DNA of 2,218 bases. It comes from a virus (taxonomy: Duplodnaviria; Heunggongvirae; Uroviricota; Caudoviricetes). Location of the stretch: IMG/VR virus record IMGVR_UViG_2698536508_000032. One strand, given 5' to 3'. The notes beneath the pieces are model-generated. The model worked only from the letters and a program-made list of their open reading frames with translations. It was not told the origin of the DNA and searched no databases. The translations under genes were made by a program, and so were the position numbers. Shown piece by piece: positions 1 to 2,218 of the stretch; positions within the stretch are counted from its first letter, which is position 1; each line of letters opens with the position of its first letter.

Positions 1-64
1 TGTGCCCCCATCGCTCTGATAGTCTGGTGTCGTCGGGTCCTTCCTGGAATTATGGCCCGTTACG

Positions 65-76
65 GGGCGGCGACCT
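65..76 (+). other. cosN core, 12-nt cohesive-end sequence GGGCGGCGACCT (copy 1)
   Basis: Exact match to the 12-nt lambda cohesive end, flanked by gttacg on the 5' side and cgcgg on the 3' side as in lambda. Confidence 0.8.
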
Positions 77-115
77 CGCGGTTTTTATCTGTTTATGAGA
101 ATTTTCCGGCAAAAG

Positions 116-132
116 TCAGATCCGATCTTCTT
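116..132 (+). repeat. cosB R3-like terminase small subunit binding element (tcagatccgatcttctt)
   Basis: Occupies the position of lambda R3 (CGTTTCCGTTCTTCTTCG) in the colinear alignment. Its core is AGATCC instead of GTTTCC. Contains two GATC sites (119-122 and 124-127). Confidence 0.6.
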
Positions 133-169
133 CTCTGTAACAGACTGTTTAACAATGAAAATATTAAAA

Positions 170-186
170 AAAGAAAGGATCTGACA
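170..186 (-). repeat. cosB R2-like element, inverted relative to R3 and R1 (minus strand gtcagatcctttctttt)
   Basis: Plus strand reads aaagaaaggatctgac, in the position and orientation of lambda R2 (AAAGAAAGGAAACGACAG). Its reverse complement shares the 12-mer cagatcctttct with R1. Contains GATC at 178-181. Confidence 0.6.
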
Positions 187-214
187 CGAGGCATTTTAGC
201 CAGAAAATGCCATT

Positions 215-231
215 ATCAGATCCTTTCTCAT
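215..231 (+). repeat. cosB R1-like element (atcagatcctttctcat)
   Basis: In the position of lambda R1 (CTGTCGTTTCCTTTCTC). Shares cagatcctttct with inverted R2. Contains GATC at 219-222. Followed by a T-rich tract as in lambda. Confidence 0.6.
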
Positions 232-255
232 TTTTGTTCAATAATTGCGCGTCTG

Positions 256-798
256 TTACTCGCCTTTCTTCTGTAGCAACTTTTCCGGTACGTTTCCGGT
301 TGTTTCTTTCAAGTAATCAGCCAGTATCTGTGGGAGGTTGTCGGCAACTCTGGCACTGGCATTACAGGCTTTAACCACTTCCCTTTTAAGCCTGTCCAGC
401 ATGGCGGGGGTAATCTGTGGGAAGCTCCTTTGCATAGTAAGCGGGAGGATGTCCATGATTGATGAAATCTGACTCGCCAGCTTTGAAAGCGCGTACAGGC
501 AAAACTCAGTATCAATCACGTCACCGCGATCGCGATCGTTTTTAAGTTCCTGCGCCTCTGCCTGTGCTGTCAGTAATCTGATCCTGACTCGTAAAAGTTC
601 ATCATCGTCAATCTCGCCTTTGTCGTTTATAAGCTGGCTAATTGCATTGTTAACCCTATTTTCTATCACGCTGGCAACATCATAAAACGCCTCACGGCCT
701 TTACGCTCAACGGGAGTTACTCCCCACTTGTCGAACGCTGTCGCACTTACACGGCAGCTTTTCGCCATGTTTTTTTTGTTCATCAGATGAGATTTCAT
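256..798 (-). CDS. nu1: Terminase small subunit, lambda Nu1 family (full length, 180 aa from the first ATG)
   Basis: The translation aligns along its whole length with lambda gpNu1 recalled from memory. Examples: N-terminal NKKNMAKSCRVSATAFDKW vs lambda NKKQLADIFGASIRTIQNW (winged-HTH region); RLLTAQAEAQELKNDRDRGDVIDTEFCLYALSKLASQISSIMDILPLTMQRSFPQ vs lambda RLTRAQADAQELKNARDSAEVVETAFCTFVLSRIAGEIASILDGLPLSVQRRFPE; and a conserved C-terminal region. Length (180 aa) matches lambda (181 aa). The start is ambiguous: in-frame ATGs at 796-798, 781-783 and a third further in, none with a strong Shine-Dalgarno sequence. Confidence 0.9.
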   Translation of the reverse strand: MKSHLMNKKNMAKSCRVSATAFDKWGVTPVERKGREAFYDVASVIENRVNNAISQLINDKGEIDDDELLRVRIRLLTAQAEAQELKNDRDRGDVIDTEFCLYALSKLASQISSIMDILPLTMQRSFPQITPAMLDRLKREVVKACNASARVADNLPQILADYLKETTGNVPEKLLQKKGE

Positions 799-799
799 T

Positions 800-837
800 A
801 ATACACCAACTTAATTACTGCTTCAGGTTGGTGTATT
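800..837. repeat. Perfect 11-bp inverted repeat (aatacaccaac, 16-nt spacer, gttggtgtatt) abutting the terS start codon
   Basis: The arms at 800-810 and 827-837 are exact reverse complements. On the minus-strand transcript one arm ends 1 nt before the ATG at 796-798. Confidence 0.5.
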
Positions 838-905
838 GCTTGCATCTTTCCCTTTTCATTCATAAAGATAGATCAAACAACAAAACCACCACCACCCCCC
901 TGAAA

Positions 906-975
906 AGGCTCATAAATAGCGAAAATCCGCGAGGTCTCCGCCCCGTAACAGGTCCATATGCCGGAAAGGACCCGC
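906..975 (-). other. cos: Lambda-type cohesive-end region, copy 2 (cosQ-side flank, cosN, I2-like), inverted relative to copy 1, upstream of terS
   Basis: The reverse complement of 911-975 reads gcgggtcctttccggcatatggacctgttacg|gggcggagacct|cgcggattttcgctatttatga. The 23-mer spanning cosN (gttacg through cgcgg) matches copy 1 (59-81) at 22/23 positions. The following 17 nt of I2-like flank differ from copy 1 at 4 positions but match the lambda sequence more closely, and the cosQ-side flank is about 80% identical to copy 1. Beyond that point (799-905) the sequence diverges from both lambda and copy 1 cosB. Confidence 0.7.
932..943 (-). other. cosN core copy 2, GGGCGGAGACCT on the minus strand (one substitution relative to copy 1)
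   Basis: Plus strand 932-943 is aggtctccgccc. Its reverse complement differs from GGGCGGCGACCT only at position 7 (C to A). Confidence 0.7.
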
Positions 976-998
976 AAAAAAGCCGGATTTCTCCGGCC
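976..998 (-). terminator. Candidate Rho-independent terminator downstream of the 137-aa ORF
   Basis: Minus strand reads ggccggagaaatccggctttttt: a perfect 6-bp GC-rich stem (982-987 pairs with 992-997), a 4-nt loop, then six T. It begins 6 nt after the stop of the 1004..1417 CDS. Confidence 0.6.
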
Positions 999-1003
999 TT
1001 GTC

Positions 1004-1417
1004 TCAGATGGTTTTCAGTATGCGATCGATGTCGCCGTCATCGCCCGGGTTTCTGCCATCGTATGCCATGCCAGCTGATACGGCTTGTGGGCTGTGCATG
1101 TCCATAAAGTTTTCAAAGGCTGCGGTAAGCTCTGGTGCAACCTTCGGGCGTTCCTGCTCTATGGTCATGTTCAGGATGTTTTTAGCCGTATCAACATCAA
1201 TACAAGGCACGTTTGCCATTGCACGTAACAGCGGCTGATAGTCGTCAGATTCATGAAGCGCCATAATCGCATCAGCGCGCGGCTTGTCCTTCTCTTCCAG
1301 GCTGTTAAGTTGATATACGGCCTCGTAGGTTGATAAACCTCTGTCAGCCATTGCCCGCGCTTCGGCTTTAAATTTACTCGCCAGCGGTAGCGTCATGATA
1401 CTTTCATTCGTTGCCAT
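1004..1417 (-). CDS. Hypothetical acidic protein (137 aa), translationally coupled downstream of the D-like gene; function unknown
   Basis: The start ATG at 1415-1417 is preceded by agggggaacg (Shine-Dalgarno GGGGGA) and lies 12 nt after the D-like stop. There is no frame conflict with its neighbours. Composition is acidic (about 23 D/E vs 14 K/R). No similarity to lambda FI, FII, W or Nu3 could be recognised by eye. Confidence 0.6.
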   Translation of the reverse strand: MATNESIMTLPLASKFKAEARAMADRGLSTYEAVYQLNSLEEKDKPRADAIMALHESDDYQPLLRAMANVPCIDVDTAKNILNMTIEQERPKVAPELTAAFENFMDMHSPQAVSAGMAYDGRNPGDDGDIDRILKTI

Positions 1418-1429
1418 CGTTCCCCCTGC

Positions 1430-1765
1430 TTATCGCGCCAGCGGCTGAACGGATACGCCAGAACCCGCAAAGGCGGCGCATTTTTTCGCGTCGGTGTCGG
1501 CGCTCTCAGGCCAGTTAACGGCGGCAATATTGAATATCCCCGTCTTGTAGCACTGTGCTGATTTCTGCGTCGACGTGTCCACGGGGTACGAGGTCAGATA
1601 AACAGCCTTGCCAGATTCCTGACCATCCCACGGCTTAAACTCGCCATTTTCCGCCAGCATCAGCGGGGTAAATTCCTGAATAACGCCAGCATCAGCAGCA
1701 AAATGTACCAGCGTCGTGGATACCTGCTGACTACCTGCAAATAACTCAATGTATGGAGTGTCCAT
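1430..1765 (-). CDS. D: Head decoration protein, lambda gpD family (111 aa)
   Basis: FTPLMLAENGEFKPWDGQESGKAVYLTSYPVDTSTQKSAQCYKTGIFNIAAVNWPESADTDAKKCAAFAGSGVSVQ aligns with lambda gpD [76 protein letters not shown] (from memory). Length matches gpD (110 aa). Shine-Dalgarno cggggggattct precedes the ATG at 1763-1765. Confidence 0.85.
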   Translation of the reverse strand: MDTPYIELFAGSQQVSTTLVHFAADAGVIQEFTPLMLAENGEFKPWDGQESGKAVYLTSYPVDTSTQKSAQCYKTGIFNIAAVNWPESADTDAKKCAAFAGSGVSVQPLAR

Positions 1766-1777
1766 AGAATCCCCCCG

Positions 1778-2218
1778 TTAACCAATTTTGACGATAACAA
1801 ATTTGCGAATATCTGCCGGTACCGGCTGCGGTGCGCTGTGCGTCTGCACGTACTCAATCGCCGGATCGCCGTCCTCAATCCAGTTTTTCGGGTAAAACAT
1901 GTTTTGCGTTGCGCCCGTTCTGACCGCTTCCTGATCCATAATCGCACCATAGGCCACCAGCCCTTTATTGTTGGTGTTACCCAGGACCAGCAAATCAGGC
2001 TCAAGGAAATATTTTTCGGTGCCGTCGCTGTCAGTGTATTTGCCGGAATAGACGACAAGGGCAATATCGCCCAGATAGCCTTTAAAGCTCACCACTTCAC
2101 CCAGGTTTTTACAGGCCAGTTCTGCGGCGTGAGGTAGCCTGAGTTTAACGGAAACTCCTTCCTGAAATAGAATGGCCTCAGAAGGAGCTAATAATGAGCA
2201 GAAAAACCCAACGTTACT
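1778..2218 (-). CDS. E: Major capsid protein, lambda gpE family, C-terminal portion (5' end lies beyond the window)
   Basis: The frame is open from the window edge to the stop at 1778-1780. LGEVVSFKGYLGDIALVVYSGKYTDSDGTEKYFLEPDLLVLGNTNNKGLVAYGAIMDQEAVRTGATQNMFYPKNWIEDGDPAIEYVQTHSAP aligns with the lambda gpE C-terminus LGKAVSYKGMYGDVAIVVYSGQYVENGVKKNFLPDNTMVLGNTQARGLRTYGCIQDADAQREGINASARYPKNWVTTGDPAREFTMIQSAP (from memory). The ORF-track start at 2095 is a GTG inside this longer open frame. Confidence 0.85.
   Translation of the reverse strand, partial: SNVGFFCSLLAPSEAILFQEGVSVKLRLPHAAELACKNLGEVVSFKGYLGDIALVVYSGKYTDSDGTEKYFLEPDLLVLGNTNNKGLVAYGAIMDQEAVRTGATQNMFYPKNWIEDGDPAIEYVQTHSAPQPVPADIRKFVIVKIG

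Follow-up and report, generated by a model that had tools for sequence, protein, structure and literature searches.

The two cohesive-end sites (cos) of the lambda type that face each other in the viral sequence IMGVR_UViG_2698536508_000032 (2,218 nt, referred to at its full length as the window) are probably two packaging keys of different specificity, carried by a phage-inducible chromosomal island (PICI) of the EcCICFT073 family. The sites, designated copy 1 (plus strand, at the cos2 position) and copy 2 (minus strand, at the cos1 position), converge around a gene for a small terminase (TerS). As an arrangement, the pair corresponds to cos1 and cos2 as already published for the EcCICFT073 family, of which the island represents another member. 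A literature search gave no match for the phage-type R3-I1-R2-R1 cosB of the second site or for the variation of its class between islands, nor for an island TerS and cos of N15 type, the behavior of the segment bounded by the two cosN as a cassette, or rare natural inversions of that segment.

A repeat search of the window returned positions 34-109 and 899-974 as the arms of a 76-nt inverted repeat, 79% complementary, with 789 nt between them. On recount, 60 of the 76 positions matched and 16 differed. When the window was shuffled 200 times under a first-order Markov model, the best inverted match over 76 nt averaged 40.5 positions (sd 1.7) and reached at most 46. As shown in Table 1, copy 1 carries the cosN GGGCGGCGACCT and copy 2 the cosN GGGCGGAGACCT, and in blastn searches both copies matched cos regions in dozens of lambdoid phages, among them phage 434 and DE3, in whose records cos is annotated. 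Each arm is thus a true cosQ-cosN-I2 module of the lambda type. An earlier note on this DNA had placed two inverted lambda-type cos on either side of terS, with cosN at these same positions, and the recount, the shuffles, and the phage alignments bear this out. Its premise that the DNA comes from a lambdoid genome, in which a single cos would be expected, was mistaken, as the window is the packaging end of a PICI.

Window positions 1-2129 were 100% identical to the chromosome of Escherichia coli O26:H11 strain 11368 and of many other Shiga-toxin-producing strains. The element is ~10.9 kb long and lies between phoQ and roxA, with a 21-bp direct repeat at positions 14204 and 25069 of locus L001, and the window is one of its ends. 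It encodes a tyrosine integrase (Pfam Phage_integrase and Arm-DNA-bind_3), a 62-aa AlpA (Pfam Phage_AlpA, 5.4e-17), an Icd-like protein, an AAA_25/RepA helicase, SSB, PerC, and DUF4222. It further encodes capsid and decoration proteins of the lambda gpE and gpD types, respectively, the small terminase, and two proteins of 137 and 93 aa. Genes for lysis, tail, portal, protease, and TerL are absent from the annotation of the 10.9 kb, and the genes lie on one strand except for one small annotated 180-bp open reading frame (ORF) of the YlcI/YnfO family. These are the attributes of a PICI: integration of an element of ~10-15 kb at a dedicated attachment site with a tyrosine integrase and direct repeats, alpA next to int, a single gene orientation, a replication module of its own without lysis, tail, portal, and terL genes, and a lambda-type cosQ-cosN with a non-helper cosB upstream of a packaging-redirection gene, together with a second cos. 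The slot gene is not an Rpp, a protein of 139-154 aa that lacks a TerL-binding tail and forms a heterodimer with the helper TerS, because it is a 180-aa TerS of the Nu1 family with a phage-like C-terminal tail and with 17/125 identity to RppA. Other islands at the phoQ-roxA site do carry Rpp (L007 and L022). These observations identify the window as the packaging module of a cos-type PICI, a phage satellite, of the EcCICFT073 family. The earlier proposal of a satellite with packaging initiation in both directions was essentially right, since both cos of the family have been published as functional. A capsid-forming PICI (EcCIEDL933 type), which would carry terS, terL, HNH, portal, protease, capsid, and connector genes and so depend on a helper for tails alone, was also considered and ruled out, as just the capsid, decoration, 137-aa, and terS genes are present. 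EcCIEDL933 as the same island, considered because the module is present in O157 genomes, was rejected as well, being a different, HNH-type capsid-forming PICI.

The cos1 and cos2 sites of EcCICFT073, the prototype island investigated in the Penadés laboratory, were published by Fillol-Salom et al. in ISME J in 2018 and Mol Cell in 2019 (PMC6092414, PMC6739421). According to these papers, cloned cos1 or cos2 each renders a plasmid transferable by lambda and phi80, whereas in the island deletion of cos1 lowers transfer, deletion of cos2 raises it, and deletion of both abolishes it. They present cos1 as the main packaging site, recognized by a heterodimer of helper TerS and island Rpp, and state that in this family the island draws TerS away and thereby blocks packaging of the helper (PMC6092414, PMC6739421). 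Induction, excision, replication, and high-frequency transfer by helpers are experimentally shown there for EcCICFT073 alone; phage-type cosB is called unrecognizable in both sites, and the orientation of the sites goes unmentioned in the searchable text (PMC6092414, PMC6739421). The 2022 review of PICI packaging by Murialdo and Feiss treats just the cos adjoining rpp.

In the CFT073 island (L007), a cosN on the plus strand at 15558 lies upstream of the 144-aa rppA, and an inverted cosN at 16297-16308 lies downstream of it; the geometry first noticed in the window is therefore that of the published cos1/cos2 pair. The two islands share the phoQ-roxA site and the gene order, namely int, alpA, replication genes, ssb, perC, capsid and decoration homologs, the 137-aa gene, cos, the packaging gene, an inverted cos, and the 93-aa gene. 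They are near-identical outside both cosN, including the cosQ flanks, and unrelated between the cosN sites, where EcCICFT073 has its 144-aa Rpp and the window a full-length Nu1/N15-type TerS. The upstream cosB of EcCICFT073 has ACACCACCACC, the reverse complement of the GGTGGTGG motif of the window, at the same position, and its downstream cosB has three ATGTCCGGTT boxes where the window has AGATCC boxes in lambda order. In finer detail, cos1 of EcCICFT073 (L007 15600-15625) contains ACACCACCACCAC at bp ~52-64 from cosN, and the TerS-type islands contain its reverse complement, GGTGGTGGTG (window 883-896). The cos1 region at bp ~52-64 has been proposed as the Rpp binding site in the review (Murialdo and Feiss), and it may be that sites of the Rpp and TerS types are a single kind of box in opposite orientations.

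Judging from its subsites, copy 1 is a complete phage-type cos of a lambdoid prophage lineage. It contains cosQ, a 12-nt cosN, I2, and R3, I1, inverted R2, and R1 at lambda spacing, as expected from the earlier description of a canonical three-R cosB, and the last four elements lie within 3 nt of the positions annotated in phage 434. No IHF (integration host factor) consensus was found in the I2-like spacer of copy 1 (77-112) at ≤2 mismatches. An alignment of the island cosB with those of two phages and one further satellite was invariant in 32 of the 36 columns that fall in boxes, compared with 42 of 88 columns elsewhere (Fisher p = 1.5e-5). Prophage L030 (E. coli RM13752) has boxes identical to those of copy 1, and AGATCC boxes also occur in the lambdoid prophage L031 and the SerU-LTIIb prophage. 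The latter had been suggested to be a satellite by its 10-kb size, which was rejected because the record is a partial prophage. In L030 and L031, the gene order is lysis genes, cos, terS, terL, and portal, and the TerS proteins of the AGATCC-box phages have a common recognition-helix motif, VRTITxWQSQG. Copy 1 has the same order and spacing of cosQ, cosN, I2, R3, I1, R2, and R1 as L030 and SerU-LTIIb, with near-identical boxes. By contrast, R1 is followed in the phages by terS and terL reading outward, whereas in the window R1 faces the 3' end of the island terS, which runs toward it, and the island has no terL, so that copy 1 lacks a cognate terS-terL pair reading away from cosB. The Nu1 start codon of lambda lies at bp ~190 from cosN; the stop codon of the island terS lies at ~bp 190.

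The island TerS had N15 gp1 as its best phage match (44%, tblastn). Its first ~60 residues, which form the winged-helix DNA-binding domain, were closest to N15 gp1 (29/52 identical), with a local score of 161 for N15 against ≤55 for lambda, 21-type, and AGATCC-type phages. The middle (32/49) and the C-terminal tail (23-24/45) were closest to the TerS of PhiR5_1 and L030, and the tail is not N15-like (16/46). In lambda, the C-terminal tail of Nu1 binds TerL. By these comparisons, the island TerS is a mosaic in which an N15-type DNA-binding domain is fused to an oligomerization region and TerL-binding tail of the L030/PhiR5_1 type. The family comprises 189 clusters at 90% identity, chiefly from E. 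coli; relatives at ~58% occur in Enterobacter and Citrobacter.

The cosB of copy 2 had been described in the earlier note as short and divergent. It does differ from that of copy 1, and the description is corrected in that it belongs to another, N15-like class, with a box at the R3 position and an inverted pair of boxes. N15 has a single R3 box, GAGGTTGTTGTTTAATC, at about bp 48-62, the same place and sequence class as the copy 2 box, and the 2022 review (Murialdo and Feiss) gives this N15 box as experimentally defined at bp 48-60. The R2- and R1-position boxes of copy 2, AATACACCAAC and GTTGGTGTATT, form a perfect 11-nt inverted repeat (z = -4.2 on folding), and the perfect partner at bp 134-144 is present in the window and in Nissle. 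No IHF consensus was found between the copy 2 boxes at ≤2 mismatches. The two systems differ in that N15 is a complete phage with terL and one cos, whose cosN is GGGCGGCGTCCG, whereas copy 2 has a lambda-like cosN and the extra boxes at the R2 and R1 positions. The region of the cosQ-side flank of copy 2 was also close to PhiR5_1, with 94% identity over 70 nt.

We also compared the cos upstream of terS among relatives. It retains GGTGGTGGTGTTGTTGTT at bp 48-62 in E. coli, Enterobacter, Citrobacter, and Kosakonia, across which the DNA-binding domain of TerS is almost invariant, and AATACACCnAC at bp 107-117, the R2 position of lambda, is kept in most of these relatives. The upstream cosN starts 146 nt before the terS start in every one of 80 IMG/VR loci, and the GGTGGTGG box stands at the R3 position in 79 of them; the cosN variant GGGCGGAGACCT was seen in 4 of the 80, the majority having GGGCGGCGACCT. 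Domain and box are thus retained as a set although the sequence around them varies, and this is best explained if the island TerS, through its DNA-binding domain, and the copy 2 box form a cognate pair. Among IMG/VR loci L036-L115, the same TerS and GGTGGTGG box were found combined with eight cosN sequences (GGGCGGCGACCT, GGGCGTCAGGCG, GGGCGGAAGGCG, GGGCGGAGACCT, GGGCGTCGACCT, GGGCGACGACCT, GGGCGGCAGACG, and GGGCGGCTGACG). From these combinations, the nicking site, which would match the helper TerL, and the binding site, which would match the island TerS, appear to evolve independently.

The junction of terS with the upstream cos was present in the orientation of the window in 494 of 5,426 complete E. 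coli genomes, including O26, O157:H7, O55:H7, O145, O45, and Nissle 1917. The second cos was more variable. Among the 69 assessable TerS-type loci from IMG/VR it was found in 30, with 21-like boxes in 16 and AGATCC boxes in 14, and where present it always lies 194-198 nt past the terS stop. It accompanies the backbone with the 137-aa gene (27/35) and rarely that with a 127-aa helix-turn-helix (HTH) gene (2/31). Other islands with the same TerS and upstream cos, for example that of Nissle 1917, have a phage-21-like cosB (CATGTCG boxes) downstream instead of the AGATCC type. In L022, the downstream boxes are N15-like (GGTTGTTGTATT), and L022 and L023 carry almost exactly the N15 box. An alignment-based search for TerS loci gave three, one in Kosakonia and two distant Pseudomonas-like ones, none with a second cos, and a search for loci of the 137-aa protein in species-representative genomes gave no match. 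No IMG/VR contig ended at a cosN, most entries being prophage predictions from isolate genomes.

Two facing cos were also observed around segments with no annotated gene. In L023 (E. coli strain 135, yejO site; 1565-2100), one site has N15-like GGTTGTTG boxes and the other ATGTCCGGTT boxes, and both cosN have the same G-to-T change, GGGCGTCGACCT, which suggests that the inverted copies underwent gene conversion or adapted jointly to a helper. In L029 (E. coli TUM9812; 2953-3477), an unrelated satellite-like element with a DUF927 primase and PerC has two convergent cos with no gene between them; their cosN are GGGGGTACGGGTAC-like and GGGCGGTAGACG, and their cosB are of the AGATCC and 21-like classes. 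This element suggests that the two-facing-cos design is more general.

The reading we consider probable is that the two sites would be used by different terminases. Copy 2 would be the private site of the island, whose cosQ-cosN-I2 would mimic those of a lambdoid helper and so be nicked by the helper TerL. The island TerS would read the N15-like boxes of copy 2 (GGTGGTGG/GTTGGTGT) and not AGATCC boxes, and its L030/PhiR5_1-like tail would presumably recruit the TerL of those phages. In such a TerS route, which resembles that of the pac-type Staphylococcus aureus pathogenicity islands (SaPIs), the helper TerS should be unneeded, unlike in the Rpp mechanism. Copy 1 would be usable by the unmodified terminase of an AGATCC-box phage, because it is a complete phage cos with the boxes of that lineage, and packaging from it would run in the opposite direction. 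Since the TerS tail and the copy 1 boxes point to the same L030-like phages, the assignment of helpers would be coherent. Termination of lambda packaging needs cosQ and cosN in the direction of translocation. If the sites were in direct orientation, a run from the downstream site would stop on reaching the upstream site of the following unit, and cyclization would lose the terS segment; between inverted sites, each run would start and end at the same site and the inter-site segment would be retained. Inverted orientation would therefore be the only stable way to keep two cos in one replicon, given that termination depends on the orientation of cosQ.

Several observations weigh against this reading. 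The second cos was missing in 39 of the 69 TerS-type loci, 9 of which have a scar; in L018, for example, cosQ and the first 8 nt of cosN are fused straight to the terS stop codon. Relatives in Enterobacter have one lambda-type cosN, and those in Citrobacter and Kosakonia have one cos with a diverged cosN, in both cases with no second cos. Because it is absent from so many loci and from these genera, the second cos is dispensable and has been repeatedly lost, in agreement with the published result that deletion of cos2 does not reduce transfer by lambda or phi80. In fact, as noted above for EcCICFT073, that deletion raises transfer by both phages, and a second site can thus be a cost (PMC6092414, PMC6739421). 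In addition, the O26 and O157 hosts contain no co-resident AGATCC-box prophage and have this cosB once per genome, so that copy 1 is without an obvious partner in its present hosts. As for copy 2, its cosN carries a substitution relative to lambda, and its R1-position box is degenerate in several relatives.

An unlikely alternative is that copy 1 acts as a decoy, titrating the helper TerS or terminase or causing unproductive cutting and so depressing the yield of the helper, while the island packages from copy 2. PICIs of this family do block helper packaging by diversion of TerS, copy 1 exactly mimics a phage cosB, and the gain in transfer on deletion of cos2 is what would be expected if cos2 did not serve island packaging. 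However, cos2 of EcCICFT073, when cloned, does make a plasmid transferable, and the transfer that remains after deletion of cos1 is abolished only if cos2 is deleted too. One copy per island genome would also be a weak sink, and the frequent loss of the site suggests little value in defense.

We likewise find it doubtful that copy 1 is a functionless leftover, slowly being lost, of recombination at cos by which a helper brought in or exchanged the terS/rpp cassette. In favor of this, the islands of O26 and CFT073 are near-identical up to both cosN and unrelated between them. The same slot holds cassettes with different genes, different cosB classes, and even no gene (L023), and many lineages have lost the second cos, with cosQ scars, which is also missing in relatives other than E. 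coli. Against this, the site is complete at exact lambda spacing, at its fixed distance from the terS stop, with boxes far more conserved than spacers; two phage-type cosB classes are each kept intact, and the counterpart in EcCICFT073 is functional. A recombination scar, which had been raised earlier, thus finds no support in the window copy, where all subsites are intact.

The orientation of the inter-cos segment was examined by means of a query in which positions 77-931 of the window were reverse-complemented. This query was matched end to end, in one piece, in 5 complete genomes at 90%-93% identity, and junction-specific queries gave 494 genomes of the window type versus these 5. None of about 77 IMG/VR loci was flipped. 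In the flipped loci L032, L033, and L034, terS is annotated on the strand opposite to the 93-aa, 137-aa, decoration, and capsid genes, and the flanking proteins of L033 have the same accession numbers as those of the O26 island. The segment I2-cosB-terS-cosB-I2 is turned, while both cosQ flanks stay with the backbone; that of copy 1 hardly differs from its counterpart in CFT073. This places the breakpoints in cosN and the roughly six bases that border it on each side. The absence of a terS reading away from copy 1, as the earlier note had it, accordingly holds in the window, but in the flipped islands the pairing is the opposite. Flipped cassettes were seen at three attachment sites, some with cosB of the AGATCC class and others with 21-like cosB, and all four combinations of class and orientation thus exist. 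The flipped cassettes differ by 7%-10% from that of the window and are therefore old, fixed variants. No invertase gene was found in or next to the cassette. Such a pattern is consistent with rare inversion, whether through homologous recombination within the identical core of ~24 nt or, as is conceivable, through cutting and re-ligation by terminase, and is at odds with a fast switch. The earlier suggestion of an invertible segment is thus supported in part, both orientations existing with breakpoints in cosN, although the ratio of 494 to 5 speaks against rapid switching.

The second of these routes leads to a tentative idea, to which we give a low probability, that the cassette is bounded by terminase and that the packaging enzyme is its recombinase. 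Cutting at both cosN would free a segment of ~870 bp, I2-cosB-terS-cosB-I2, with the same 12-nt overhang at each end, and this segment could re-ligate either way or be swapped with the equivalent of a co-replicating phage or island. Such a role would explain the breakpoints in cosN, the existence of all combinations of cosB class and orientation, and the cosN substitution shared by both sites of L023.

It is very improbable that the cos pair forms the ends of a regulated invertible switch (phase variation) of packaging direction or terS expression. Complete genomes contain both orientations, at three attachment sites and in two cosB classes, and terS seems self-contained, with a terminator-like hairpin upstream of cos, and could work either way round. 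The ratio of 494 to 5, the lack of flipped loci in IMG/VR and of an invertase gene, the 79% identity of the arms here, and the 7%-10% divergence of the flips all argue against regulation. An assembly artefact, in which the second copy would be a mis-join at the ends of a linear cos genome, is a general risk for cos genomes, and the window is short and ends in an insertion sequence (IS), but the chance of it is negligible and the proposal is refuted by the junction in 494 independently finished chromosomes, in an island flanked by phoQ and roxA, with arms that differ at 16/76 positions and unrelated cosB regions.

The second cos of E. coli PICIs has been a loose end since 2018, being functional when cloned, yet its deletion improves transfer. 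A second site that is a phage cos of a class varying between islands, beside a first site matched to the island protein, suggests two keys and a wider or switched helper range. Roughly 9% of complete E. coli genomes, those of O157:H7, O26, O145, and Nissle 1917 among them, carry the island, which is therefore relevant to gene transfer in pathogens and in a probiotic. TerS-type islands would be the cos-system counterpart of the strategy of SaPIs with a small terminase of their own. In pac-type SaPIs, as proposed for the window island, such a terminase redirects the helper large terminase, and the cos-type satellites P4 and SaPIbov5, like the window island, carry a helper-type cos; here both strategies would be joined in one element within a lambda-type cos system, and the staphylococcal proteins and sites are not homologous to those of the window island. 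For SaPIbov4, two putative cos sites are likewise reported (PMC6092414, PMC6739421). The rare flips with breakpoints in cosN raise the unproven possibility that terminase cutting drives recombination of packaging modules. If terminase were a recombinase, it would shuffle packaging specificity, that is, the TerS or Rpp gene with its two cosB keys, among satellites and helpers.

Table 1. Features of the window, with positions, strand, and the basis of each assignment
Feature	Position	Strand	Basis or remark
cosQ-side flank of copy 1	30..64	+	Comparison with L007 and L032-L034; similarity to right ends of phage cos
cosN of copy 1, GGGCGGCGACCT	65..76	+	Exact lambda cohesive-end sequence; phage 434 cosN annotation
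I2-like spacer of copy 1, TTTATCTGTTTATGAGAATTTTCC	77..112	+	Alignment to cos of 434, PhiR5_1, and L030
Phage-type cosB of copy 1	113..236	+	Box CAGATCCnWTCT; same boxes in L030, L031, and SerU-LTIIb
R3 of copy 1, CAGATCCGATCT	117-128	+	bp 53-64 from cosN; phage 434 annotation 50-65
I1 (IHF-like) of copy 1, AAACAGTCTGTTA on opposite strand	138-150	-	bp 74-86; phage 434 74-86
R2 (inverted) of copy 1, CAGATCCTTTCT	172-183	-	bp 108-119; phage 434 108-123
R1 of copy 1, CAGATCCTTTCT	217-228	+	bp 153-164; phage 434 151-166
Island small terminase, 180 aa	256..798	-	Pfam PF07471 (Phage_Nu1), E 7.9e-23; PHROG 57, 2.4e-51
Island-specific N15-like cosB of copy 2	799..897	-	Boxes at R3, R2, and R1 positions
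R1-position box of copy 2, GTTGGTGTATT	800-810	read on -	bp 134-144 from cosN
R2-position box of copy 2, AATACACCAAC	827-837	read on -	bp 107-117 from cosN
R3-position box of copy 2, GGTGGTGGTGGTT	883-896	-	GGTGGTGGT at bp 48-61 from cosN
I2-like spacer of copy 2, CGCGGATTTTCGCTATTTATGAGCC	898..931	-	Alignment to lambda/434 and CFT073 cos1
cosN of copy 2, GGGCGGAGACCT	932..943	-	One change from lambda, position 7
cosQ-side flank of copy 2, GCGGGTCCTTTCCGGCATATGGACCTGTTACG	944..975	-	Near-identical to CFT073 cos1
Terminator-like hairpin, 9-bp stem, GAAA loop, U6	976..1000	-	RNA fold -14.5 kcal/mol; conserved in CFT073
137-aa island protein, NCBI name "head-tail connector"	1004..1417	-	PHROG 1999 (unknown function)
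Head decoration protein homolog (c1500 equivalent)	1430..1765	-	Pfam HDPD 1e-17; CFT073 synteny
3' part of lambda gpE-type major capsid gene (c1499 equivalent)	1778..2128	-	Pfam Phage_cap_E; cut off by IS

The remaining features of the window lie beside the cos-terS unit. The hairpin at 976-1000 is directly 3' of the 137-aa gene, before copy 2. A promoter and terminator consensus scan of the window left it unflagged and gave no convincing terS promoter, and a terminator function is thus suggested by the fold; an Rfam scan of the window gave no match. The 137-aa protein matched nothing in Pfam or NCBIfam and had a weak match (6.7e-9) to the C-terminal end of the head maturation protease PHROG 53. 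In lambda-like phages, the C-terminal end of the head maturation protease is the scaffold part, and the 137-aa protein may be scaffold-like. In other islands, its slot holds the 127-aa HTH protein, which is AlpA-like. The 93-aa protein (PHROG 1561, unknown function; L001 14719-15000) starts just outside the cosQ flank of copy 1 and is kept in nearly all islands of the family regardless of the packaging cassette.

The last 90 bases of the window (2129-2218) matched unannotated DNA in Stx2a phages, and an ORF starting there (MSRKTQRY...) matched a transposase model of the IS3 family. As the match to the O26 chromosome ends at 2129, an IS3-family element interrupts the island capsid gene in the source of the window. 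Other head modules were found beside the same unit: in L020 and L021 (yejO site, 2229-3726), the same TerS and upstream cos, with cosN GGGCGGCAGACG, stand next to a fusion gene of a ClpP-like protease and major capsid protein that is not of the gpE type, evidence that the TerS-cos unit passes between islands whose head modules differ. In the Enterobacter-type contigs L008-L010 and L014-L016 (about 6500-12500), a capsid-decoration-HTH-TerS module is followed by accessory genes on the opposite strand and, further on, by a second capsid gene of the gpE type that lacks its 5' end, FI, FII, Z, U, V, G, T, and a tape-measure gene. From this gene order, the Enterobacter-type islands appear either to adjoin the head-tail genes of a lambdoid prophage or to have inserted among them.

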